Source: Candidatus Bathyarchaeota archaeon (GTDB lineage Archaea; Thermoproteota; Bathyarchaeia; 40CM-2-53-6). From it: 64,000 bases of DNA. The notes under the pieces are model-generated. The model searched no databases. It saw only the letters and a list, made by a program, of their open reading frames with translations, and was not told the origin of the DNA. The first letter of the stretch is position 1; the number at the start of each line of letters is the position of its first letter. Of this stretch, positions 6,984 to 56,956 are shown one piece after another. The stretch is taken from NCBI GenBank assembly GCA_005888745.1, contig VBBS01000027.1:55045-119044 (forward strand), in the 5' to 3' direction. A program made the translations under genes and the position numbers.

Positions 6984-7469
6984 TTAACTGTCTTGCTTGG
7001 CTGTCTCGACCGGTAGTGGAGCGTCTTCCCCAAGCTGGAGTACTTTCTTCAGTTCTTTTTTCATGAGTGATGGGTCATGGTTGAGATTGAAGTAGTCTGC
7101 GAACGTTGTAGTCGTCCTTAGCATTCTGGTTCTTCCGATCCTCTCGTCATTAATCAGGTCCATGTCCTTCAGCTGTTTCACATGGCCGTAGGCCAGTTTA
7201 CCGCGAACCCGTACCACGTAGGACTGGGTGACAGGCTGCTTCAGAGCTATGAATGATAACGTCCGAAGGGGTCCTGGTGTTAGAAGCGGTCTGTTCGCCA
7301 GTTTTCGAACGTGCTTAGCGAATTCTGCCTTTAGCTGCATGACAAAGCGTCCGTCGGGAAGTTCCACGACTTGAATCGGACTACTGGCGGTTTTGTAACG
7401 TTCAGAAACCGCCGTTGCGATTCCGCGTATCTTGTCCTCTGATCTAGCGCCTACGACAGACCCGATCAT
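6984..7469 (-). CDS. scpB: segregation and condensation protein B
   Basis: ScpB-like winged-helix sequence. Located downstream of scpA and smc on the same strand. Confidence 0.8.
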   Translation of the reverse strand: MIGSVVGARSEDKIRGIATAVSERYKTASSPIQVVELPDGRFVMQLKAEFAKHVRKLANRPLLTPGPLRTLSFIALKQPVTQSYVVRVRGKLAYGHVKQLKDMDLINDERIGRTRMLRTTTTFADYFNLNHDPSLMKKELKKVLQLGEDAPLPVETAKQDS

Positions 7470-7554
7470 CTTCAGGTCTAGTGGTCTTCCGGATACGTAC
7501 AGTGCAGCCTCGCAGAGCTGCTGCTGTAGGTCAGCAGTTTTCTGCTGAGCTGTG

Positions 7555-8232
7555 TTAGTCGAAACTTGTGTTTCCGTCGTCTCTCAGCTCGATTTCGATA
7601 TCACCGAACTCTAAAGGCTGGGCGAGGCCCACTCTTCCTTCTACTGCCAAGAATAGCAGCATGATGAACATTCTGACCGCTTCGAGAGGGTCTCCCTTTC
7701 CAAGGAGGGTTAGGAAGGACAATTTTGTTCGCGCGGATCCAGCTTTTGCTACTAGTCTCTGGAGAAACGCTTTGATATTCTCTTCAATCTTGACGAGGAA
7801 ATCGTCGACTTGTTCAAACACCTCGGGCGTCCTGAGAACCATCTGTGCGTTTGCCGGGAGCATTCTCTCCGCCGTCAACACCTCCAGTAATCCTTTGATG
7901 ACTTCCTCAACAGATGTGGTTGTCGACTCGTAGCGTAAGGGAAAGGATAGGGGAGGGGGAACGAAGTCTGTCGGCCTCTCGAGGGGGGGCTTCGGCGGTT
8001 CCTCCATCTTGAGGATTAGTTCTGATTTCATGCGCAGAAGGATTGCTGAAGAGAGAAGGGCTGTCCCAGAAACGGAGAAGTCGATGAACCCTCGACCCCT
8101 CATCTCATGAAGAAGCTCCTCCAGTATGTTTGCGAGGTTTACGTCCCACGGTTTGACGCGGTGAAGATGGATGAGGTCGAAGAGAACGGCATATGGTGCC
8201 TTCAGCCAGTACGCCTCTTCGTGAAGCGTCAA
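7555..8232 (-). CDS. scpA: segregation and condensation protein A (kleisin)
   Basis: ScpA-like N-terminus (LIHLHRVKPWDVNLANILEELL). Its start overlaps the smc stop by 4 nt. Confidence 0.8.
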   Translation of the reverse strand: MTLHEEAYWLKAPYAVLFDLIHLHRVKPWDVNLANILEELLHEMRGRGFIDFSVSGTALLSSAILLRMKSELILKMEEPPKPPLERPTDFVPPPLSFPLRYESTTTSVEEVIKGLLEVLTAERMLPANAQMVLRTPEVFEQVDDFLVKIEENIKAFLQRLVAKAGSARTKLSFLTLLGKGDPLEAVRMFIMLLFLAVEGRVGLAQPLEFGDIEIELRDDGNTSFD

Positions 8233-31226: not shown

Positions 31227-32735
31227 GTGGAGTTGCGTGAGAATGATGTTAAAGTCCTGAGAACTCTCCGGGACGCGGGCGGAATCGCTTCAGCTGAAGA
31301 TATAATCCGGAAAGCCGGCATAGTCGACGCGGCTGTTGCCCGCGCGTCACTCACACTGTCAGAACTAGGCCTAGTCAAGGAACAGACAACAAGGACCACC
31401 GAAATATTTTGTACCGAGGAAGGACATGATTATCTGGCTAATGGACTACCCGAGCGAAGGGTCGCCACGGTAGTTCACGATGCCGGGGGAAAACTCTCGG
31501 TCAGCGAAGCGGTCCAGCAAGCGGGTCTGCCACAAGACTTTGTCTCAATAGTCACAGGCTGGATTGCCCGCAAACGCTGGGGAAAGATCGAGAAAACAAG
31601 TTCAGGCAATATTCTACTGATCTCGAAAAACCCGCCCAAAGACGAAGATGAAGAGGTTCTCGAGAGAATTGGCCATGTCAGCATTCCAATAGAAGAATTG
31701 CCGAGCAACCTGAGACAAGCAGCCGATAGACTCCTCAAGAGAAACATCCTGGCCTCGAAGGAACGAGTACAGCGGAAACTACAGATCACCCCTCAAGGGT
31801 TGGACGCGATTCCGGCCCAAGCATCTGTCGATGAGATTAGCAGTCTAACAAGCGAGATGATTCTCTCTGGAGACTGGAAGAGAGTCCACCTTCGATCGTA
31901 CAATGTTTCTTCACCTGTCCCTTCGCTCAGTCCTGGAAAGTATCATCCTTACTTGCGATTCTTGCGGAGGGTCAAACGGAAGCTTGTTGCGCTCGGGTTC
32001 AGAGAGGCTGTCGGACCCCTGGTCGAAACCGCCTTCATCAACGACGACTGCCTCTACATGCCGCAAGATCATCCAGCGAGAGAAATCCACGATCTCTACT
32101 ACCTGAAACACCCGTCCAAAGCGAGCCTGGAATCATGGAAGGAAATCGTGGAGAAGGTAGCGCAGACCCACGAGAACGGCTGGAAGACAGGGTCCACCGG
32201 ATGGGGCTACAAGTACTCGAGAGAAGAAGCCTCCAAACTAGTCCTTCGGAGCCACGGCACCGCTCTAAGTGTCCGGTCAATGATTTCCAAGGACCTTCAG
32301 ATTCCAGGCAAATACTTTGCTATCGCGAGGTGCTTCCGGCCCGAACTCCTCGACAGAACTCACTTGACAGAATTCAACCAGGCGGAAGGGATCGTTCTCG
32401 ATCCCAGCCTCAACCTACGCAATCTCCTCGGGGTCTTGGAGATGTTCGCTCGCGAGGTCGCGGGGGCCGACAGGGTCCGTTTCAAACCCGACTACTTTCC
32501 ATTTACAGAACCCAGTGTCGAGTTGCAAGCCTACAAGGAAGGATACGGATGGATGGAGTTCGGCGGCAGCGGAATATTTAGACCCGAAGTCACAGAACCC
32601 CTCGGCATCAAAGTACCCGTGATCGCGTGGGGGCTCGGAATAGACAGGCTGTTCATGATGAACCAGCAGATCCAGGATATCAGACAGCTCTTCACAACTG
32701 ACCTCGAATGGATAAGGCAACAGAAGGTCGGCTAG
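31227..32735 (+). CDS. pheS: phenylalanine--tRNA ligase alpha subunit
   Basis: Class II aaRS motifs (FRPELLDRTHLTEFNQAEG, GSGIFRPEV). GTG start. Confidence 0.9.
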   Translation: MELRENDVKVLRTLRDAGGIASAEDIIRKAGIVDAAVARASLTLSELGLVKEQTTRTTEIFCTEEGHDYLANGLPERRVATVVHDAGGKLSVSEAVQQAGLPQDFVSIVTGWIARKRWGKIEKTSSGNILLISKNPPKDEDEEVLERIGHVSIPIEELPSNLRQAADRLLKRNILASKERVQRKLQITPQGLDAIPAQASVDEISSLTSEMILSGDWKRVHLRSYNVSSPVPSLSPGKYHPYLRFLRRVKRKLVALGFREAVGPLVETAFINDDCLYMPQDHPAREIHDLYYLKHPSKASLESWKEIVEKVAQTHENGWKTGSTGWGYKYSREEASKLVLRSHGTALSVRSMISKDLQIPGKYFAIARCFRPELLDRTHLTEFNQAEGIVLDPSLNLRNLLGVLEMFAREVAGADRVRFKPDYFPFTEPSVELQAYKEGYGWMEFGGSGIFRPEVTEPLGIKVPVIAWGLGIDRLFMMNQQIQDIRQLFTTDLEWIRQQKVG

Positions 32736-32736
32736 A

Positions 32737-34422
32737 ACGCCCTCAGTCCAATTCTCTCTGGCGGATCTGGAAGATCTCCTTGGACAGAAGGTTCCCCGAG
32801 ACGAAGACGGGCTCAACCAGCTCCTCGCCTACGTCAAGGGCGACGTGGAATCCCTCGACGAACAGAATGACAGCGTCAGCATCGAGGTCAAAGACAGCAA
32901 CCATCCCGACATCTGGTCGGTAGAGGGAATCGCACGCGCTCTCCGCACTCATCTCGGTCTTACCAAGCCCAAGGCTCCAATCCTTACCGGAAAATCCGGT
33001 CTGAGAGTCACAATAGATCGTAGACTAGGTGCAGTCCGGCCTTTCATCGCAACCTCCATCGTGAGAAACGTCAAGCCAAGCGAGGACGCCCTGAAGAGCT
33101 GGATAAGCCTACAAGAAAAAATGGACCTCACGTACGGTAGAAAGAGAAAACGTGCCTCAATCGGGTTCTACCAAGCCGACCTGATCAAGTCACCTCTTCG
33201 CTACACTGTTGGCAATCCTGAAGACACAGGGTTCGTCCCCCTAGGCTCAACAGAGAAGATGTCTCTCCGAGAGATTGTAGAGAAGCATCCTAAGGGAATT
33301 GAGTATGGAGGAACAATCTCATCTTTCAAAGACTGGCCGCTCCTGGAGAACGGCGACGGCAAGATTCTCTCTCTTCCACCAATCATCAACTCCAACGATC
33401 TGGGCAAGATCGCCTCAGATACGAAGAACATCCTGGTAGAGGTCACAGGGACGAATATCGAAACCGTAGGCAATACGCTGAAGATAGTCGTAGCCGCTCT
33501 CGCCGAAAGAGGAGGCAAGATCTACAGCTGTACTCAAACCTACACGGACAAGTACTCCAAGCCGATAACTACGCCAGACCTGAAATCCAGCATCAAGGAA
33601 TTATCAGTCAACTATGCTAACAGACTTCTTGGATCCACGTTCAAACCAGCAGAGATGATACGATCCTTAGTGAGAGCCGGCCATCCTGCTCGACAGGTGA
33701 GTAAGGACATCTTGCGCGTGGAGAGCCTCTGCTACCGTATCGACATCATGCATCAAGTTGACCTCGTCGAGGATCTCGCGATCGCACTTGACATTAACAG
33801 GCTAGATCCTGAATGGCCGAGAATCTGGACTCTCGGGGGACTAGCGCCTGAAACAGATAGACACGAGACTCTTGCCGAAATCATGATCGGGCTAGGATAC
33901 CAGGAGCTTCTGACCTACAGTCTGACATCCCCTGAAGTCTTCGTTGACAAGATGGGCATAAAACGCGAAAAATACGCGGAGCTGATGAATCCTAAGATGT
34001 CAACCCATACCGCATTGAGAACCTGGCTTCTACCCAGCATTCTCAATTTGCTCAAGGACAATACTCATGTCGATTATCCTCAGAGAGTCTTCGAGATCGG
34101 ACCTTGCGTAGTTGTCAAAGAAAATGGCGAAGGTCAGACGGAAACTCGATACAAGATCGCTGCGGCGACAGTTCACACAGCAGCCGGCTTCACTGAGATT
34201 CGATCTTGCCTCGACACACTCCTCGCAAGCATCGGGGTCAAGTTCGAGGTCGTGCCCACGGTTCAACCGAGCTTTCTCGAGGGACGCACTGGGGAGGTGA
34301 TGTCAGGGCAAGAGCGACTAGGAGTAGTTGGAGAGTTGCACCCGAAGATAATCCGTGCTTGGAGTCTCAGCCTCCCCGTCGCAGCTTTCGAACTAGAGAT
34401 TCCACCAATGGAGGCTGGTTAG
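32737..34422 (+). CDS. pheT: phenylalanine--tRNA ligase beta subunit
   Basis: The PheT-like N-terminus (PSVQFSLADLEDLL...IEVKDSNHPDIW) runs in frame back to ACG 32737, 2 nt after the pheS stop. The ORF track starts at GTG 32845, which removes the conserved N-terminal domain. Confidence 0.85.
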   Translation, partial: TPSVQFSLADLEDLLGQKVPRDEDGLNQLLAYVKGDVESLDEQNDSVSIEVKDSNHPDIWSVEGIARALRTHLGLTKPKAPILTGKSGLRVTIDRRLGAVRPFIATSIVRNVKPSEDALKSWISLQEKMDLTYGRKRKRASIGFYQADLIKSPLRYTVGNPEDTGFVPLGSTEKMSLREIVEKHPKGIEYGGTISSFKDWPLLENGDGKILSLPPIINSNDLGKIASDTKNILVEVTGTNIETVGNTLKIVVAALAERGGKIYSCTQTYTDKYSKPITTPDLKSSIKELSVNYANRLLGSTFKPAEMIRSLVRAGHPARQVSKDILRVESLCYRIDIMHQVDLVEDLAIALDINRLDPEWPRIWTLGGLAPETDRHETLAEIMIGLGYQELLTYSLTSPEVFVDKMGIKREKYAELMNPKMSTHTALRTWLLPSILNLLKDNTHVDYPQRVFEIGPCVVVKENGEGQTETRYKIAAATVHTAAGFTEIRSCLDTLLASIGVKFEVVPTVQPSFLEGRTGEVMSGQERLGVVGELHPKIIRAWSLSLPVAAFELEIPPMEAG

Positions 34423-34423
34423 G

Positions 34424-35578
34424 ATGGTCGAGGAGAAGTTCGTCGTAACCCCTTGGGAGGTCAAGGGGGCGGTCGATTATGACCGACTGATCCGGGACTT
34501 CGGAACCCAACCGATAGCCGGCCTGCTGACCAAGAGGATGGAGGAGATTATGGGTGATGCTGGCTACCTCATCCGCCGGCACATCTTCTTCTCACACCGA
34601 GACCTCAACCTTGTTCTCGACGACTACTCGAAGGGCAAGGGATTATTCCTGTATACTGGTCGTGGACCTAGCGGTCCGATGCACATTGGCCACATACTCA
34701 GCTTCTACTTCACAAAGTGGCTGCAAGACAAATTTCATTCAAACGTCTACATTCAGATAACGGATGACGAAAAATTCCTTGAGGAGAAGCGGAACCTAAC
34801 CTACGAAGATACTCAACGATGGGCTGTAGATAATATTCGTGAAATTGCCGCGGTTGGCTTCGACCCTGATCGGACTTTCATTCTCCAAGACACGGAGTTC
34901 ATCGGACACGCGTATCCTCTAATTCTGAAAATAGCCCGGCGAGTCAATTTCAGCCTCGCCAAGTCAGTTTTCGGGTTTACTGGCGAGACAAACATCGGTT
35001 TCGCTTTCTACCCATCGATCCAGATTCTTCCAACCCTTCTCGAAAAAAGGCGCTGCCTCATCCCGTCGGCCATAGACCAGGACCCATACTGGAGGATACA
35101 ACGCGACATTGCCGAATCCATGGGATACTACAAGGCTGCTGCCGTTCACAGCAAGTTCCTGCCCCCGCTAACAGGGATGAAAGACAAGATGAGCTCATCA
35201 AAACCCGAGACTGCAATCTACCTCAGCGATGATGACAAGACGGTTCGGAACAAGGTATACCGGTACGCTTTTTCTGGTGGACAAGCGACCAAGGAGGAAC
35301 ATCGGAAGAAGGGTGGAGACCCCGATGTTGATGTTCCCTTCCAGTGGCTCTACATGTTCTTTGAGCCCGATGACAAGAGAATAGAGCAGATACGCGTCGA
35401 GTACAAAAGCGGCCGAATGCTTACAGGGGACCTCAAAGACATACTCATTGAAAAGGTGACAACATTTCTCAACCAGCACCGACAACGTAGAGAGAAAGCT
35501 GGCGACCTCATACATTTCTACAAGAAAGACGGGACGCTTGCACAGGAAATGTGGACTCGTGACTTCAGTAAATCGTAG
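34424..35578 (+). CDS. trpS: tryptophan--tRNA ligase
   Basis: Class I motifs (PSGPMHIGH HIGH-like, KMSSS KMSKS-like). Confidence 0.9.
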   Translation: MVEEKFVVTPWEVKGAVDYDRLIRDFGTQPIAGLLTKRMEEIMGDAGYLIRRHIFFSHRDLNLVLDDYSKGKGLFLYTGRGPSGPMHIGHILSFYFTKWLQDKFHSNVYIQITDDEKFLEEKRNLTYEDTQRWAVDNIREIAAVGFDPDRTFILQDTEFIGHAYPLILKIARRVNFSLAKSVFGFTGETNIGFAFYPSIQILPTLLEKRRCLIPSAIDQDPYWRIQRDIAESMGYYKAAAVHSKFLPPLTGMKDKMSSSKPETAIYLSDDDKTVRNKVYRYAFSGGQATKEEHRKKGGDPDVDVPFQWLYMFFEPDDKRIEQIRVEYKSGRMLTGDLKDILIEKVTTFLNQHRQRREKAGDLIHFYKKDGTLAQEMWTRDFSKS

Positions 35579-35583
35579 TTCAT

Positions 35584-36543
35584 ATGTCAGAGGAGTATCC
35601 TTTCAAGCATAGCAAACTTAGGAGTATGGTGGATTCAGTGTACGATTCGGAAGCCCTGAACTCTTTCCGGAAATCAGGCCAGATCATCGCAAAGCTCCGG
35701 AAGGAAATAGCCTCCATCGTCAAGCCGGGAAAACCCGCGCTGAAGATATGCGTGGAAATCGAAAGCCGGATTCGGGAGCTCGGAGGCAAGCCGGCCTTCC
35801 CCGTCAATATCGGGATCAATGAGATTGCCGCACACTACACGTCGCCGCCCGGCGACACTCTAACCATTCCCTCCGGGTCAATGGTGAAAGTTGACTTCGG
35901 GGTCCACGTGAACGGTTACGTGACGGACACGGCTGTGACCGTTTTCTATGATCCGAAATTCGAACCGATGGTGAAGGCTGCTGACGATGCATTGCAGAAC
36001 GCAATCAAAACATTCAGAGGAGGAGTCAAACTATCAGATATCGGACGAGTCATCCAGACAACGATAGGAAAGTATGGGTTCCGACCCATTAGCAATCTCA
36101 CAGGTCACAGCATCGAAAGGTACAGCATTCACGCAGGTAAATCCGTGCCAAACGTTCCAGTGCTTGCCGCAGGGAAGGCAAACGAAGGCGAAGTGTTCGC
36201 CATCGAACCTTTCGTAACCCTGCCCGACGCCGCAGGCTCCGTCACAAACATGCTGCCGGCCCAGATCTACCGCTACATAAAATCCAAAGGCGTTAAAAAC
36301 GACGAGTCCAAGAAAGTCCTCGACGACATATACGCAAGATTCTCAACCCTGCCCTTCGCACCCCGCTGGCTGGAAGACAAGTTCCCTAGAGAGACCGCTA
36401 AGCGCGCGATGCTAGACCTGACACACAACAAGTGTGTAGGCGGATATCCTGTCTTAGTGGAGGAGACTCGGAGACCCGTTGCCCAGTCAGAACATACGGT
36501 TCTGGTCGGACGGGATGACTGTACCGTACTTACAACAGACTGA
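35584..36543 (+). CDS. map: methionine aminopeptidase type 2
   Basis: Pita-bread fold metal ligands (VDFGVHVNGYVTD, FAIEPF, HSIERYSIHAGK). Confidence 0.9.
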   Translation: MSEEYPFKHSKLRSMVDSVYDSEALNSFRKSGQIIAKLRKEIASIVKPGKPALKICVEIESRIRELGGKPAFPVNIGINEIAAHYTSPPGDTLTIPSGSMVKVDFGVHVNGYVTDTAVTVFYDPKFEPMVKAADDALQNAIKTFRGGVKLSDIGRVIQTTIGKYGFRPISNLTGHSIERYSIHAGKSVPNVPVLAAGKANEGEVFAIEPFVTLPDAAGSVTNMLPAQIYRYIKSKGVKNDESKKVLDDIYARFSTLPFAPRWLEDKFPRETAKRAMLDLTHNKCVGGYPVLVEETRRPVAQSEHTVLVGRDDCTVLTTD

Positions 36544-41263: not shown

Positions 41264-41956
41264 TTGCTCACCGAGTCGCAGTCAGAGATGCTTGGGATAC
41301 TGTTCGGAGATGGGTCGATGTCTGAGAATCACAACTCCGTTCAGATCGTCATAACCGGTCACAAATTCGATGACGTAGAGTACCTAATTGGCCGCGTAGG
41401 TCCGATGTTCGCGGAACTCTTTGAAATGCCCCTCAAGGTACATCTAGTGAAAGATGAAAATACGATGATCCTCTACGCTTACTCCAAACGAATTGCCCTG
41501 ACCCTTCACGAATGGGGAATGCCTTTTGGCCGAAAAAAACTGGCCTGGCTCACACCGCACGTCGCATTGGATGAAGTATCTTTCGTCAGAGGCTTATTCG
41601 ACACAGATGGCTGTGTCTATCGCAAGTATGGCCCTTATTTGCAAATCCAGTTTAAGTTCGCTTCCCTTTCGCTCCTTGAGTACGCGAGGGAGTGTCTGGT
41701 AAGACTCGGCCTGAATCCCACATCGATCAGGTGCGACGATACGAAGTTCAGGTTCTATCTCAGCAGACAAGCCGAGGTAGACCATTTCTTTAGGGTCGTA
41801 GAACCCAAGAACCCAAAGCATCTTAATCGTTTCCAAAATGCTTCTCGGAATCGGTCCTACCGCCCATACACACATCGTCCTGAAGCACTCAGAAGAATTG
41901 GAAACCAACCAAGCCTTATAGGACCAATTCTGTGGAAAACACACTCGGTGGGGTAA
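41264..41956 (+). CDS. free-standing double-motif LAGLIDADG homing endonuclease
   Basis: Motif 1 LGILFGDGSM and motif 2 VRGLFDTDGCVY. TTG start. Confidence 0.8.
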   Translation: MLTESQSEMLGILFGDGSMSENHNSVQIVITGHKFDDVEYLIGRVGPMFAELFEMPLKVHLVKDENTMILYAYSKRIALTLHEWGMPFGRKKLAWLTPHVALDEVSFVRGLFDTDGCVYRKYGPYLQIQFKFASLSLLEYARECLVRLGLNPTSIRCDDTKFRFYLSRQAEVDHFFRVVEPKNPKHLNRFQNASRNRSYRPYTHRPEALRRIGNQPSLIGPILWKTHSVG

Positions 41957-47985: not shown

Positions 47986-48077
47986 AACAACAACAGTCTA
48001 GCCCGGTTCCATCTGACATATTCCTCGGAAAACGTTCTTCTAATCAGACCCGTCAGTTCTAGGACAGGAGCGGGGAA

Positions 48078-49235
48078 GTCTTAGGCCGCATCGGAATCGT
48101 TGGAGTTGGACATTCAAAGTTCGGAAAAAGGAGCGACGCCTCCCTCCGAGAGCTAGCATTCGAAGCGTACAGTTCCGCCCTAGATGACGCCGACATCGAC
48201 TCTTCAAAAATAGACGGTTCAATAGTTTGCTCCGCCACTCACTACGACAAGCAACGATCGCCTGCAGGTGTTGTTGCGGAATATCTCGGACTCAATCCCC
48301 AACCAACATTCAACGTTGAGGCAGCCTGCGCCTCCAGCGCTGTTGGCCTTCGGACCGCGTGGGCGCTTGTCTCATCAAAACTTCATGATGTGGTGGCCGT
48401 TGTGGGGGTGCAGAAGATGACCGAACTCTCCTCGGAGGAGATCCAGGAGCTCATGGGCAGAGCAGGGGACGTCATGTGGGAGTCTCCCTTCGGAACAACA
48501 ATGCCCGCATACTACGCCTCCTATGCTAACGCCCACATGGCCAAGTACGGAACTACAGAGGAACAAATGGCGCTCGTGTCGGTGAAGAACCGAAAATACG
48601 GATCCAAGAATCCTAACGCCATGTTTCAAAAACCCATCCAATTGGAAGAGGTCCTAAAATCGCGAATGGTATCTTATCCTCTAAAACTATACGATTGCTG
48701 CGCCAATGCTGACGGGGCGGCATGTCTGCTCATTACTAGTGCCGAAAAAGCAAAGAAAATTTCTGATAGACCCGTATGGATCTCCGGGCTTGGCCTGGCT
48801 TCGAGTCCCATGTCGCTTGCTGGAAGAAAAGGTCCATTGACGAGTTTCGATGCCACAAGAAATGCGGCGAGAACGGCATACGAAATGGCCAATATCAAAC
48901 CACACGACGTACATGTGGCGGAGGTTCATGACTCTTTCTCGGTAACAGAAATCATCAATTATGAAGACCTCGGATTCGCACGACCTGGAAGGGGTGCTAA
49001 GCTTCTGGAAAACCAAGGCACGGAGCTCGGCGGGAGAATCCCCGTCAACATCGACGGAGGCTTGATTTCCAAAGGCCATCCAGTCGGAGCCACAGGCGCG
49101 TCCCAGATCTTCGCATTGGTCAAACAACTACGGGGGGAAGCGGGTAGCGTTCAGGTCGACGGCGCTAAGATTGGTCTCGCACAGAACATAGGGGGAATAG
49201 GAATGTACTGCTCCGTTACGATCTTGCGCTCATGA
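48078..49235 (+). CDS. thiolase (SCP-x-type acetyl-CoA C-acyltransferase)
   Basis: Thiolase N-terminal domain (GRIGIVGVGHSKFG...AACASSAVGL active Cys) is in frame with the called ORF 48390..49235. The frame opens at 48063, and there is no ATG, GTG or TTG before 48390. Start position uncertain. Confidence 0.75.
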   Translation, partial: VLGRIGIVGVGHSKFGKRSDASLRELAFEAYSSALDDADIDSSKIDGSIVCSATHYDKQRSPAGVVAEYLGLNPQPTFNVEAACASSAVGLRTAWALVSSKLHDVVAVVGVQKMTELSSEEIQELMGRAGDVMWESPFGTTMPAYYASYANAHMAKYGTTEEQMALVSVKNRKYGSKNPNAMFQKPIQLEEVLKSRMVSYPLKLYDCCANADGAACLLITSAEKAKKISDRPVWISGLGLASSPMSLAGRKGPLTSFDATRNAARTAYEMANIKPHDVHVAEVHDSFSVTEIINYEDLGFARPGRGAKLLENQGTELGGRIPVNIDGGLISKGHPVGATGASQIFALVKQLRGEAGSVQVDGAKIGLAQNIGGIGMYCSVTILRS

Positions 49236-49281: not shown

Positions 49282-50208
49282 TTGCAGGTGGACATTCAAG
49301 AGTTGACCCCCATTCAAAGCTTCGGCAGAAGAATTCGAGCCTATGATAAAGCCACACGCCTCGCAAAGGAAGGTCGCCCTGTCACTGAAATCTCGAAAGA
49401 GACGGGAACGCCTGACGCTACCATCAGGGGATGGCTCGTAAACGGTCGAAAACCTTGGACCCGCTGCGAACTCTTCAAACCAACGTACTCTGATCAATTA
49501 ACATATGTTATCGGTGTTTACATGGGAGACGGCTCGATTTCCCGATGGAGAAATCGTTTTTTACTGCGATTAGATGTCAAAGACAAAGAATTCGCCGATA
49601 AGTTTTCTTCAACATGCGCACATGTTCTGGGTAGGAAACCATATTCTGTGAGGCATGTCAGGGATAGGGACACATACGAGACTATCATTTCAAACGCGTC
49701 TTTCTGCAAGTTCCTCAACCGAGGCCTCACCCACCTGGATCGGTATGTACGGGAGCATCCCTCTGGCTTTGTTAGAGGTTTAGCTGATAGCGATGAGTGC
49801 CCCACTGTGACAACAACAAAAAAGCGGGGCAAACCCTGGTTCTTCGTCCAAGTTGTAGTAGCAACATCCAAGAGCATACGCTTACTGAGCTATACTCGGA
49901 CGATCCTGAGGGAATGCCTCGGACTCAAAGCGACGCTAGTGTACAAAGGCAAGCCAAGACCCAGTGTGTTCAAGAACAAGTTGCTCCGTTCAAGAAAGAG
50001 GGTCTTTGACCTTAGGATATCGCGCTTTGGTGACGTGAAACGATTCTCCCGGGTTGTTGGTTTCGAATTGGCTCGGAAACAAGAGAAGCTTGCCGCTGCT
50101 ATCTTCGTCCGTGAAGGATTTGGTTCTGGTCAGGATGCGGTGAAAGAGTGGACCCGTCGCTGGGAGCATGGCACCACTGAGTGGATTCTCAAGAAAGGAG
50201 TGGACTAG
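49282..50208 (+). CDS. free-standing LAGLIDADG homing endonuclease with N-terminal HTH
   Basis: Motif 1 YVIGVYMGDGSI and motif 2 FVRGLADSDECP. TTG start. Lies between the thiolase and DUF35 genes. Confidence 0.8.
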   Translation: MQVDIQELTPIQSFGRRIRAYDKATRLAKEGRPVTEISKETGTPDATIRGWLVNGRKPWTRCELFKPTYSDQLTYVIGVYMGDGSISRWRNRFLLRLDVKDKEFADKFSSTCAHVLGRKPYSVRHVRDRDTYETIISNASFCKFLNRGLTHLDRYVREHPSGFVRGLADSDECPTVTTTKKRGKPWFFVQVVVATSKSIRLLSYTRTILRECLGLKATLVYKGKPRPSVFKNKLLRSRKRVFDLRISRFGDVKRFSRVVGFELARKQEKLAAAIFVREGFGSGQDAVKEWTRRWEHGTTEWILKKGVD

Positions 50209-50211
50209 GCA

Positions 50212-50620
50212 ATTGGGTTTTGAAAAGTTCGGGAGATTTGGTTATGTCTCCCAGACCAAGATCAACCCCTTGTTATCCTATCTGGAAAAGGGGCAGATTG
50301 CCGCGACCAAGTGCAAGAAGTGCGGGAGAACGTACTTTCCACCAAGAGCCGAGTGCCTGGACTGCCGCCACAGTACGATAGAATGGGTTGTAGTGGACGG
50401 GAGGAGCAAACTGATCACATTCACCCAGGTTTTCTTCGCACCACCCGCCTTTCAGCACGAAACCCCGTACATGCTAGGACTTGCGGAACTCACGAATGGG
50501 CTTCGCGTATTCGCGCCTGTCAGTCCTGCAGTGGAAAAGGAGCAACTCAAACCGGGCGTCGAGCTGACCTTGAAGGTTGCAAAAGGCTCACGTGACAACT
50601 TGTACTACTGGCTCGAATGA
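50212..50620 (+). CDS. DUF35 OB-fold/zinc-ribbon protein (thiolase partner)
   Basis: CKKCGRTYFPPRAECLDC ribbon plus OB-fold. The ORF track starts at ATG 50168 inside the endonuclease gene. TTG 50212 with an upstream AAAGGAG gives the typical ~135-aa DUF35 length. Confidence 0.7.
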
Positions 50621-55643: not shown

Positions 55644-56051
55644 TTGTGGCAGGCGTATGACAAGTCAGCTTTGGAACTTGGAGATCTCGAGGCAGCTGTC
55701 CTCGGGACAGTTGTTCGGCTTGGCAACGCTTCTGCCCGCCAAGTCGCTCAGGACCTGCATGCTACCCGTGGACTCGCATACACTACAATCAGTACAACGC
55801 TGGATCGTCTTTACAGGAAGGGGATCTTGGCCCGTGATGAGGCTGTTGGCAGAGGAGGGTCCAGATACGTGTATCGCCTTCACTCCGAGGACAAGGTCAA
55901 GGGTCGAGTCGTGAAAGGATTCGTTGACAGGTTGCTCACAGCCTTTGGACCCAGCATTATCTCGACGTTGCATGACTACATGGATGAGATTCCAAAGGAG
56001 GACCTGAAGAAGCTGGAAGAAAGAGTTCGTAGGGAGTCCGGGCAACGATAA
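55644..56051 (+). CDS. BlaI/MecI/CopY-family winged-helix repressor
   Basis: ARQVAQDL...LAYTTISTTLDRLYRKGILAR matches the penicillinase-repressor family pattern. TTG start. Confidence 0.7.
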   Translation: MWQAYDKSALELGDLEAAVLGTVVRLGNASARQVAQDLHATRGLAYTTISTTLDRLYRKGILARDEAVGRGGSRYVYRLHSEDKVKGRVVKGFVDRLLTAFGPSIISTLHDYMDEIPKEDLKKLEERVRRESGQR

Positions 56052-56956
56052 GCCTGGAACTGTACTCGCTCTACTTCCTTTCGACAGCTACCCTGGGAAT
56101 TGTAGCAACAGTTCTGATAGTCCAAATTGCTTCCTATATCGCCTACCGATCAAGTGTGGGAAATCCCTCTCGCAGATCCAGCCTCCTATATCCGATACTA
56201 TCCTCTTCTGTTTTCTTCTGGTCGTTTCTTGGAACTAGCCTTGTAGTGTGCACGCTCTTCCTCAATATGTACGAGTGGCAATCACAACGAGTGATAAGAC
56301 TCGTGTTTGGAAGTTCGCTGGTAGCATCTATCGGAATCTCCTCTCTCATGTCCCTTATTGCTCGAAGATACGCGTTCCCTAGAATGCTTGGGGGAATGAT
56401 CGCAGGAACATTCTCGAGCTCTAGACTGAGCGAAACATGTGCGGAGCTATGCAACAAGATGGGTATCAAAGGAGTCGACCTTAGAGAAGCTAGGGTGGGA
56501 AACGCGTTTTCTTTGGACAATGGGAGTTGGAAGGTCGTTGCCGTATCTCCCGAGCTGGTGAGTTCCATGTCACCGGCGGAAGTCGAGGCGGTCATTGCTC
56601 ACGAGATCTCTCACTTGAAGAACAAGGATTCTCGAGAGAAGGGACTTGCAAGGCTGGCTAAACTGGCCTTCGTTTTTGACCCCGTGCTGCATCTTGTTGA
56701 GGCTGCGGTCCACAGAGAACGTGAACTCCTCGCCGACCAGTTGTCAGTGGAATACACTCAGAAGCCGTTGGCACTCGCATCAGCTTTGCTGAAGGTTCAT
56801 TCAGCCTTCCACGCCCCATTGCCTGGGCCTGGAGCCGGATTGTTTGTAGGTCGAAAGACAAGAGGTCTCTTGAGCAGGTATCCCGACCTTGATCGAAGAG
56901 TCCAGCTGCTAATTGACATGGACCGAGAGATGAAGACTCAGACGATCCCCGCCTGA
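56045..56956 (+). CDS. M48/M56-family zinc metallopeptidase (HtpX/BlaR1-like), membrane
   Basis: HEISH (HExxH) and downstream ELLAD (ExxAD) zinc-ligand motifs. The N-terminal TM helix (ISLELYSLYFLSTATLGIVATVLIVQIASYIAY) lies upstream of the called GTG 56156, in frame back to ACG 56045, which overlaps the blaI-like stop (ACGATAA). Confidence 0.7.
   Translation, partial: TISLELYSLYFLSTATLGIVATVLIVQIASYIAYRSSVGNPSRRSSLLYPILSSSVFFWSFLGTSLVVCTLFLNMYEWQSQRVIRLVFGSSLVASIGISSLMSLIARRYAFPRMLGGMIAGTFSSSRLSETCAELCNKMGIKGVDLREARVGNAFSLDNGSWKVVAVSPELVSSMSPAEVEAVIAHEISHLKNKDSREKGLARLAKLAFVFDPVLHLVEAAVHRERELLADQLSVEYTQKPLALASALLKVHSAFHAPLPGPGAGLFVGRKTRGLLSRYPDLDRRVQLLIDMDREMKTQTIPA

Follow-up and report, generated by a model that had tools for sequence, protein, structure and literature searches.

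Translation of pheT, the gene for the phenylalanyl-tRNA synthetase (PheRS) beta subunit, normally begins at an ATG, GTG or TTG codon, but in this Candidatus Bathyarchaeota archaeon an ACG triplet stands at that place. This raises the question of where the protein begins and how a ribosome could start there. The gene was analyzed within the window, which is the whole stretch of 64,000 nucleotides, and was compared with related loci. An earlier note on this DNA, made from the sequence itself, had proposed ACG as the start.

The pheS-pheT junction

The features of the junction and its surroundings are as follows.

31227..32735, forward strand: pheS (PheRS alpha subunit), with a GTG start and the stop TAG at 32733-35 (Pfam tRNA-synt_2d, 2.9e-81)
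32723..32728, forward strand: SD-like GAAGGT at the 3' end of pheS, 8 nt ahead of ACG (junction alignment)
32733..32736, forward strand: pheS stop TAG plus a 1-nt spacer (sequence)
32737..32739, forward strand: ACG, proposed pheT start at the Met1 position (comparison and profile/structure alignment)
32737..34422, forward strand: pheT (PheRS beta subunit), 561 codons plus stop (TIGR00471; Pfam B5 and tRNA_synthFbeta)
32740..32844, forward strand: pheT codons 2-36, conserved N-terminal coding sequence 5' of any canonical start (substitution pattern)
32758..32760, forward strand: CTG codon 8, the GenBank start (TMI09171.1, 554 aa), not conserved (annotation)
32845..32847, forward strand: GTG codon 37, where other gene callers begin the protein (525 aa); relatives do not conserve it as a start (ORF calls)
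34424..35578, forward strand: trpS, with an ATG start 1 nt past the pheT stop (ORF, Pfam)

The window sequence at the junction reads ...GTC GGC TAG(32733-35) A(32736) ACG(32737-39) CCC TCA GTC CAA TTC... The gap between the pheS stop and ACG is one base, and not 2 nt as the earlier note had counted. The pheT frame is open from 32716 because the preceding in-frame stop is TAA at 32713-15. The ORF check agrees with the note that this frame has no ATG, GTG or TTG before GTG 32845; CTG occurs in this frame at 32758 and 32767. The pheS gene has an ordinary start in relatives (GTG, ATG or TTG, with GGAG before the start codon). The ATG of trpS shows that tight junctions elsewhere use ordinary starts.

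The PheT translation (TPSVQFSLADLEDLLGQKV...) scores 472.7 bits against the archaeal pheT profile TIGR00471 (cut-off 282.65), with residues 2-555 aligned to profile positions 2-547 of 551. With this full-length match over the cut-off, the gene encodes the archaeal PheRS beta subunit (TIGR00471 pheT_arch). It contains the PF03484 (B5) and PF17759 (class II-like core) domains and has pheS directly upstream. Profile position 2 falls on residue 2, and residue 2 of the P. horikoshii PheT structure 2CXI also aligns with residue 2 of the window PheT; therefore, ACG occupies the Met1 position. A canonical start codon is absent at profile position 1, where the codon is ACG, which is a matter of gene structure and not of family membership. 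The presence of ACG at the Met1 position is thus confirmed as the earlier note described it, by the profile, the structure and the orthologues.

Conservation of the ACG codon

Among related loci the codon at the PheT Met1 position is ACG in 77, ATG in 18, GTG in 3 and GCG in 3 (L099, L100 and L102). The 77 ACG loci represent 56 distinct sequences with a PheT identity of 58-100%. The ATG and GTG carriers are outgroups (more distant Bathyarchaeia) and one derived subclade. ACG is near-cognate, being one base from AUG at a position where orthologues carry the initiator Met. The earlier note had pointed to the orthologue starts and to a possible T/C difference at 32738 as ways to check its reading. 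Orthologues with canonical starts begin at the equivalent of 32737 (ATG or GTG, giving MPSVQF.. or MPTI..) and not of 32845. Two SRA assemblies made independently from one strain, that of the window (L023 and L024), both have C at 32738, and 75 further related loci from many samples and projects share C at the equivalent position.

The ACG triplet is constant in the 56 distinct sequences, while each of codons 2-36 shows at least two codon variants. On a 68-tip tree, positions 1, 2 and 3 of ACG require 1, 2 and 0 parsimony steps, respectively. Third positions elsewhere require a mean of 10.9 steps (range 2-21) compared with 0 for the third base of ACG, and nearby four-fold sites require 13-21. 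The variable sites in codons 2-36 number 20, 13 and 35 at the first, second and third codon positions. The changes are mostly synonymous, and many residues are a single amino acid encoded by 2-5 synonymous codons. By this pattern codons 2-36 are coding sequence, and the pheT ORF of 561 codons is intact and under purifying selection. Since the third base of ACG is frozen while its neighbours drift, it is the triplet that is selected and not the amino acid threonine.

The clade-wide presence of ACG and the selection on it were missed in the earlier note, and they make ACG a real feature rather than a possible error. The ACG start probably became fixed in the ancestor of a large clade of soil Bathyarchaeia and has been retained since. 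These comparisons support the note's interpretation of ACG as a start. On balance, the pheT ACG is likely to be a genuine non-standard start under selection, which gene finders annotate wrongly.

Other candidate non-canonical starts were found in the lineage. The start of an M48 peptidase gene is an invariant 'ACG ATA' overlapping the stop of a blaI-like gene in 9 loci. This pair is apparently a second conserved non-canonical start at a stop-start junction, and in ORF surveys of two relatives (L105 and L107) the M48 peptidase was the only further gene found to lack a start. In the window ScpB gene, an ACG (7577-75) falls in alignment on the TTG with which ScpB of one relative (L113) starts. 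This is suggestive only, as the ScpB N-terminus is of low complexity and the gene order differs. Two other ACG triplets were rejected. The first follows the pheT TAA directly at trpS in L041 and L042; this trpS has internal deletions or frameshifts, different in the two contigs, which suggests a copy in decay, and it was not counted as an independent ACG start. The second lies between the trpS stop and the M24 peptidase gene of many relatives; it belongs to a conserved intergenic motif (TTCWTACGT), often with TAA directly after it, and is not a start.

Possible explanations for the ACG codon

The best explanation, to which we give somewhat better than even chances, is that pheT is translated from ACG 32737-39 as a near-cognate codon, coupled to the termination of pheS. 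A ribosome finishing pheS at TAG 32733-35 would remain on the mRNA, where the SD-like GAAGGT 8 nt upstream would hold it after termination. It would then re-initiate 1 nt past the stop at ACG, which the initiator Met-tRNA would read with a central C.A mismatch. ACG would be poor for free ribosomes, so that beta synthesis would depend almost wholly on alpha translation, and this dependence would link both subunits of the (alpha-beta)2 enzyme. The initiating residue would be cleaved off anyway, since Pro follows it. The predicted N-terminus is (M/T)PSVQFSLADLEDLLGQK, or PSVQFSL... after removal. We infer both the use of the initiator tRNA at ACG and the coupling to pheS, as well as the selective reason for keeping ACG, for which the stoichiometry argument is a rationalisation.

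The architecture of the junction is consistent with coupling. The distance from the pheS stop (TAG, TAA or TGA) to ACG is 0-3 nt in all ACG loci. The CAGA.GGT.G columns are invariant in 25 diverse ACG junctions, and other sublineages have ACGGTG or ATGGTG at the SD-like site. The GGT.G lies 8-11 nt upstream and overlaps the coding constraint of pheS; it has 4-5 nt of complementarity to the anti-SD sequence, which we assume from general archaeal knowledge as the 16S rRNA is outside the window. The distance between the co-directional genes is within the range for archaeal termination-reinitiation, about -8 to +10 nt, and this process is enriched among subunits of heteromeric complexes (PMC10666635). 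SD motifs aid archaeal termination-reinitiation (PMC6728339). Against coupling, as cited in the latter paper, the one archaeal gene pair with adjoining stop and start tested in Sulfolobus was not coupled.

Several points count against near-cognate initiation. Only one subclade has fixed the easily made C-to-T change to ATG, which simple tolerance of ACG does not explain. The GCG of three loci would make two mismatches to the CAU anticodon, and the SD-like motif is weak. ACG initiation in systems tested elsewhere is only a small fraction of that at AUG, which seems low given that beta is essential and has to match alpha 1:1. In favour of near-cognate initiation, E. coli starts translation with Met at ACG, though weakly (bioRxiv 10.1101/063800), and near-cognate codons make up about 30% of the putative alternative starts mapped by ribosome profiling in Haloferax (PMC7261190).

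A broader proposal is that this Bathyarchaeia lineage has a dedicated NCG-start route that would regulate pheT together with a few others, among them the gene of the blaR1-like M48 peptidase. The route might be site-specific C-to-U editing of mRNA, or a variant of the initiator tRNA or of an initiation factor able to read a central C; if true, each of these would be the first case in archaea. This proposal is speculative and we consider it doubtful.

Editing taken by itself is unlikely. C-to-U editing of the mRNA before translation would turn ACG into AUG and GCG into GUG, as at plant-organelle starts, and the genome would keep ACG as the editing site. Both variants are indeed ATG or GTG with T replaced by C (77 ACG loci and 3 GCG loci), and a regulated step could account for the failure of ACG to revert to ATG. 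The invariant ACG in the start region of the M48 peptidase and the ACG in the window ScpB also fit. However, we know of no C-to-U editing of archaeal mRNA, tRNA C8 editing being the only archaeal case known to us, so such editing would be without archaeal precedent. The 25 diverse ACG junctions gave no conserved RNA structure (RNAalifold -1.5 kcal/mol, 0 covarying pairs). They also showed no conserved cis element, as the upstream conservation is accounted for by pheS coding and the SD. No deaminase-like gene is among the Pfam-annotated genes at 24.8-42 kb of the window. The Pfam-annotated neighbours are PolB, primase-like Toprim, GAPDH, M24 peptidase, DUF1512, PQQ propeller and LAGLIDADG, with no initiation factor among them. 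The exact Met-initiated version of PheT is also absent from a collection of 15 billion sequences, although this collection is mostly DNA-derived.

Altered initiation machinery is quite improbable. Here ACG would be made cognate in the lineage, for example through an additional initiator tRNA carrying a CGU anticodon, modification of base 35 in the initiator tRNA, or an altered fidelity of aIF1. A CGU anticodon is cognate for ACG and would read GCG by first-position wobble, as CAU reads GUG. Several genes in the 64-kb window (pheT, the M48 peptidase, ScpB and a thiolase) lack a canonical start ahead of the conserved N-terminus. However, most genes start with ATG, GTG or TTG, including those at tight junctions like trpS, and the thiolase (TTA) and ScpB cases are seen in this genome only. 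Rfam and ARAGORN found no tRNA or other RNA genes in the whole window.

It is very improbable that PheT begins downstream, either at the GenBank start (CTG, codon 8) or at the one called by Prodigal (GTG, codon 37), with the upstream codons untranslated or the protein truncated at the N-terminus. Public annotations have adopted such starts, and the PheT of the clade appears in databases as fragments of 524-554 aa. The choice of start in these annotations is almost random. Codon 8 is CTG in just 22 of the 56 distinct relatives and CTA, CTC, CTT or TTA in the remainder, and many relatives have no start codon at codon 37. Among relatives the first canonical codon past ACG lies anywhere between codon 4 and codon 109, and in some of them it is 92-108 codons downstream. 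Codons 2-36 also show a clear coding pattern, with 35 of 35 third positions variable compared with 13 second positions, and the codons before GTG 32845, which a downstream start would lose, align to ordered residues in PDB 2CXI. The earlier note was right that a start at 32845 cuts into the conserved N-terminal domain, as 36 conserved residues would be lost, but these are just the beginning of the first domain and not most of it. An upstream start is impossible because the pheS stop abuts ACG in L074/L075 and an in-frame TAG lies 3 codons upstream in L002-L005. No conserved start other than ACG exists.

A PheS-PheT fusion protein, made by frameshift or readthrough at the pheS stop or from the out-of-frame ATG 32708 with a frameshift, is extremely improbable. 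The genes adjoin and are in the same frame in L074/L075, but the spacer is 0, 1, 2 or 3 nt depending on the sublineage and the frame relation is not kept; therefore, a frameshift or readthrough fusion is excluded. The last pheS codon (GGC, GCC, GAC, GAG, GGT or GGA) and the stop also vary, no slippery heptamer was seen by eye in the junction sequences, and the ATG/GTG relatives share the architecture. A sequencing or assembly error, or a pseudogene, has a negligible chance of being the answer: a single T-to-C change would suffice and the same MAG has a thiolase start TTA where close relatives have ATG, but C occurs at 77 loci from many projects, two of them independent assemblies of the strain, the intact ORF is under purifying selection, and the comparative data already refute it.

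Comparison with known systems

Literature searches turned up no conserved ACG start for archaea or Bathyarchaeota. A clade-aware annotation rule would repair the PheT records. ACG has been kept through roughly 40% protein divergence against a one-step change to ATG, which implies some benefit from a start that is weak or conditional. If editing or an altered tRNA proved true, it would add a new kind of step to archaeal gene expression. In archaea, start codons are selected by eukaryote-like factors, namely aIF1, aIF1A and aIF2 (PMC7531240). The pheT gene is a natural test case for how these factors handle near-cognate codons, and its junction also probes whether reinitiation relaxes the choice of start codon.

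Conserved non-NTG starts are very rare in prokaryotes, and the textbook case is bacterial infC. Like pheT, infC (IF3) is an essential translation-related gene whose non-standard start is widely conserved and selected rather than drifted. It uses AUU, for a reason that is understood: IF3 discriminates against AUU and thereby regulates its own synthesis. In contrast, PheT has no known role in start-codon fidelity, and its codon is ACG, in an archaeon, 0-3 nt from the stop of the partner subunit.

The termination-reinitiation cases (Huber et al. 2019 and 2023; PMC6728339, PMC10666635) share with pheS-pheT a co-directional pair of subunit genes, a distance in range and an SD-like motif in the upstream 3' end. 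They use ATG, GTG or TTG, however, and a near-cognate reinitiation codon is not reported there; the pheS-pheT coupling is putative. The ACG-to-AUG editing of plant organelles (for example in ndhD, psbL and rpl2) also involves a genomic ACG at a conserved Met that is kept across lineages. It differs in requiring PPR/DYW factors and in being confined to organelles, and archaea are not known to edit mRNA.

ACG initiation is described for Sendai virus C' and AAV VP2 in references given in PMC9845219. In the eukaryotic, viral and E. coli cases the initiator Met-tRNA pairs with a middle mismatch, as proposed for pheT. These cases mostly give minor or alternative isoforms, whereas here an essential housekeeping protein would depend wholly on ACG as its start.

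The pheS-pheT junction

The genes for the alpha (pheS) and beta (pheT) subunits of PheRS meet in the window as follows.

31227-32735, + strand: pheS, ending in the stop TAG 32733-32735
32736: spacer, a single base A between the pheS TAG and the ACG
32737-32739, + strand: ACG, followed by CCC TCA GTC CAA TTC, at the Met1 position of PheT
to 34422, + strand: pheT frame, 561-codon product, archaeal PheRS beta subunit
1 nt 3' of the pheT stop: trpS, with an ordinary ATG start

The 561-codon PheT scores 472.7 bits against TIGR00471 (cut-off 282.65), and Pfam matches its B5 and core domains. By family the protein is an ordinary archaeal PheT; the unusual part is its start. Residue 2 falls on position 2 of the TIGR00471 profile and aligns with residue 2 of the P. 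horikoshii structure 2CXI; therefore, the ACG occupies the Met1 position, as an earlier note had proposed. The frame, open after TAA 32713-32715, contains no ATG, GTG or TTG before GTG 32845, as that note also stated. CTG codons occur in the frame at 32758 and 32767.

Related loci (genome and metagenome contigs, L-numbers) restrict the start further. The pheS stop directly abuts the ACG in L074 and L075, only one codon separates the two in L076-L079, and many relatives have an in-frame TAG three codons upstream of the ACG (e.g. L002-L005). The position of the first canonical codon downstream ranges from codon 4 to codon 109, and in seven loci it is 92-108 codons downstream. pheT has no other start available. 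The GenBank record TMI09171.1 (554 aa) starts pheT at CTG 32758; this is codon 8, a CTG in no more than 22 of 56 relatives. Among close relatives, public gene calls use many different starts, with products of 524-564 aa, and the public PheT records of the clade (P0001-P0085 and P0362) range from 453 to 564 aa for the same gene depending on the pipeline. Such scatter is typical of a gene that lacks a canonical start; the PheT of the whole clade is systematically mis-annotated.

Distribution and conservation of the ACG codon

The codon aligned at the Met1 position was compared in 22 loci from a genome scan and 80 from a metagenome scan.

Codon at the PheT Met1 position in the compared loci
ACG: 77 loci
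ATG: 18 loci
GTG: 3 loci
GCG: 3 loci

The ACG loci, which all come from soil Bathyarchaeia, represent 56 distinct 108-nt N-terminal sequences and share 58-100% PheT identity with the window. L023 and L024, Logan assemblies built independently from different sequencing runs, have the same ACG and an identical 525-aa call. The ACG is not an error. A neighbor-joining tree of PheT places a single origin of ACG at the base of a large clade, with ATG or GTG in the sister group (L084, L086, L092) and in all deeper Bathyarchaeia. The clade contains one ATG subclade (L089, L094, L096, L098, L101) and one GCG lineage (L099, L100, L102). The GCG is found at locus position 1798-1800 in L099 and L100 and 1555-1557 in L102, aligned to 32737-32739 of the window, and its flanks are identical to those of the ATG-bearing sister lineages. 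The GCG lineage has ~88% nucleotide identity to these sisters, with 6 synonymous and 4 non-synonymous changes in the first 25 codons. Codon 23 is changed from AAG to GTG in the GCG lineage.

Codon 1 is ACG in 56/56 distinct sequences, whereas codons 2-36 each have 2-17 codon variants. Variation at the first, second and third codon positions affects 20, 13 and 35 sites, respectively, and includes synonymous changes such as CCC/CCA/CCT/CCG at Pro2 and five codons at Leu8. This contrast shows that purifying selection acts on codons 2-36, which are translated, and that the ACG does not behave as a threonine codon. In Fitch parsimony on a 68-tip ingroup tree, the third base of the ACG requires 0 steps, compared to a mean of 10.9 (range 2-21) at neighboring third positions and 13-21 at four-fold sites. 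The two second-base changes are C to T and both fall in the ATG subclade; the only first-base change, A to G, is that of the GCG lineage. Therefore, the one-step transition to ATG has been resisted almost everywhere, and selection acts on the ACG triplet itself.

Other candidate non-canonical starts in the window

A rough survey of ORFs across the window flagged three more genes with conserved N-terminal sequence before any canonical start.

56033-56956, + strand: BlaR1-like M48/M56 peptidase, frame opening at 56033, with ACG ATA AGC at 56045-56053
6984-7583, - strand: ScpB, frame opening at 7583, with ACG ACG at 7580-7575 and the ScpA stop at 7557-7555
48063-49235, + strand: thiolase-domain gene, with TTA 48081-48083 where relatives have ATG

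The peptidase ACG ATA AGC overlaps the stop of a blaI-like repressor gene (TAA 56049-56051; TAA or TAG among loci). In nine loci (relatives L107, L109, L110, L112, L114-L117), GCA ACG ATA is invariant and later codons vary synonymously, and none has an ATG, GTG or TTG before the conserved first transmembrane stretch. In public calls the protein is cut short, with many different truncation points. The peptidase is a second case of a non-canonical start shared across the clade at a stop-start junction, either ACG or ATA; the two are inseparable, as this stretch also codes for the C-terminus of BlaI. The ScpB gene has no canonical start before its conserved 'EAALYVSGRPLDL' motif, and its putative start overlaps the ScpA end by ~20 nt. 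The ACG at 7577-7575 with the following GAA ACA aligns with the TTG GAA ACA start of one relative (L113), which is only suggestive of a start there.

The thiolase codon is ATG in four fetched related loci (L105-L108), the proteins of relatives begin with Met at this point (M[GS]RIGI), and the loss of the start codon is seen in this genome only. The first canonical codon, GTG 48390, is 109 codons into the open frame, 103 after the TTA and beyond the active-site Cys; the GenBank start is ATC 48090. Free-standing LAGLIDADG-like ORFs occur at 49282-50208 (+) and 41264-41956 (+). One of them separates the thiolase gene from its DUF35/OB-fold partner gene (50168-50620); it is syntenic in relatives (L105 and L107) and fragmented in L107.

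Two further candidates are spurious on inspection. In L041 and L042 an ACG replaces the trpS ATG directly after the pheT TAA; this trpS is interrupted near codon 318 by internal deletions or frameshifts, different in each of the two contigs, and is probably a decaying gene copy. The motif TAG TTCWTACGT directly follows the trpS stop in most relatives at 75-90% PheT identity (L005-L070), and the window has TTCATATGT at 35576-35587, with ATG 35584 at the position of the others' ACG. In many relatives TAA follows this ACG at once; therefore, the M24 peptidase gene probably has its true start further downstream (35638 in the public call). Given the pheT and peptidase cases, non-standard starts at putatively coupled junctions recur in this lineage; ACG is not claimed as a general start codon there.

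Mechanism and precedents

The ACG start of pheT is real, conserved and selected. The junction resembles that of a translationally coupled pair: pheS and pheT encode the two subunits of a single enzyme, the stop-to-ACG distance is 0, 1, 2 or 3 nt by sublineage, and an invariant Shine-Dalgarno-like GGT.G lies 8-11 nt upstream of the ACG inside the pheS end (here GAAGGT 32723-32728). Termination-reinitiation in Haloferax and E. coli is functional only over ~-8 to +10 nt; subunits of heteromeric complexes are over-represented among the genes that use it, and such SD motifs often aid it (PMC10666635, PMC6728339). Near-cognate initiation has been documented too: E. coli GFP initiated at ACG carries an N-terminal Met (bioRxiv 10.1101/063800), and in Haloferax ribosome profiling ~30% of the putative alternative initiation sites were near-cognate (PMC7261190). 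aIF1 reportedly discriminates against non-canonical starts (cited in PMC8211752). On these grounds it is proposed that ribosomes finishing pheS re-initiate on the ACG, presumably with initiator Met-tRNA. The weak ACG may block independent pheT starts by free ribosomes and would thereby tie beta synthesis to alpha. Coupled re-initiation is plausible and the most likely mechanism, although in every system measured ACG initiates poorly, and PheT has to be supplied 1:1 with PheS. Initiator tRNA would need a double mismatch in the GCG lineage.

There is a small but real probability of a more exotic mechanism, C-to-U editing or an initiator reading the central C. Replacing T by C in ATG and GTG gives exactly ACG and GCG, as such a mechanism predicts; the exact Met-initiated PheT is absent from a 15-billion-protein collection that is mostly DNA-derived. 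RNAalifold found no conserved structure in 25 diverse junctions (-1.5 kcal/mol, no covariation), and Rfam and ARAGORN found no RNA genes in the 64-kb window. Mere tolerance of ACG leaves its retention against ATG unexplained. Frameshift or readthrough fusion is ruled out as a general mechanism, since pheT has no conserved frame relation across sublineages to pheS or to the out-of-frame ATG 32708 (inside the pheS 'EWI' motif), with the 0-3 nt spacer, a stop of TAG, TAA or TGA and a variable last pheS codon.

In the literature searched, no archaeal ACG start codon is described. Of what is known, bacterial infC with its conserved AUU start comes closest, together with ACG initiation in eukaryotes and viruses, the editing of ACG to AUG in plant organelles and coupling by termination-reinitiation.
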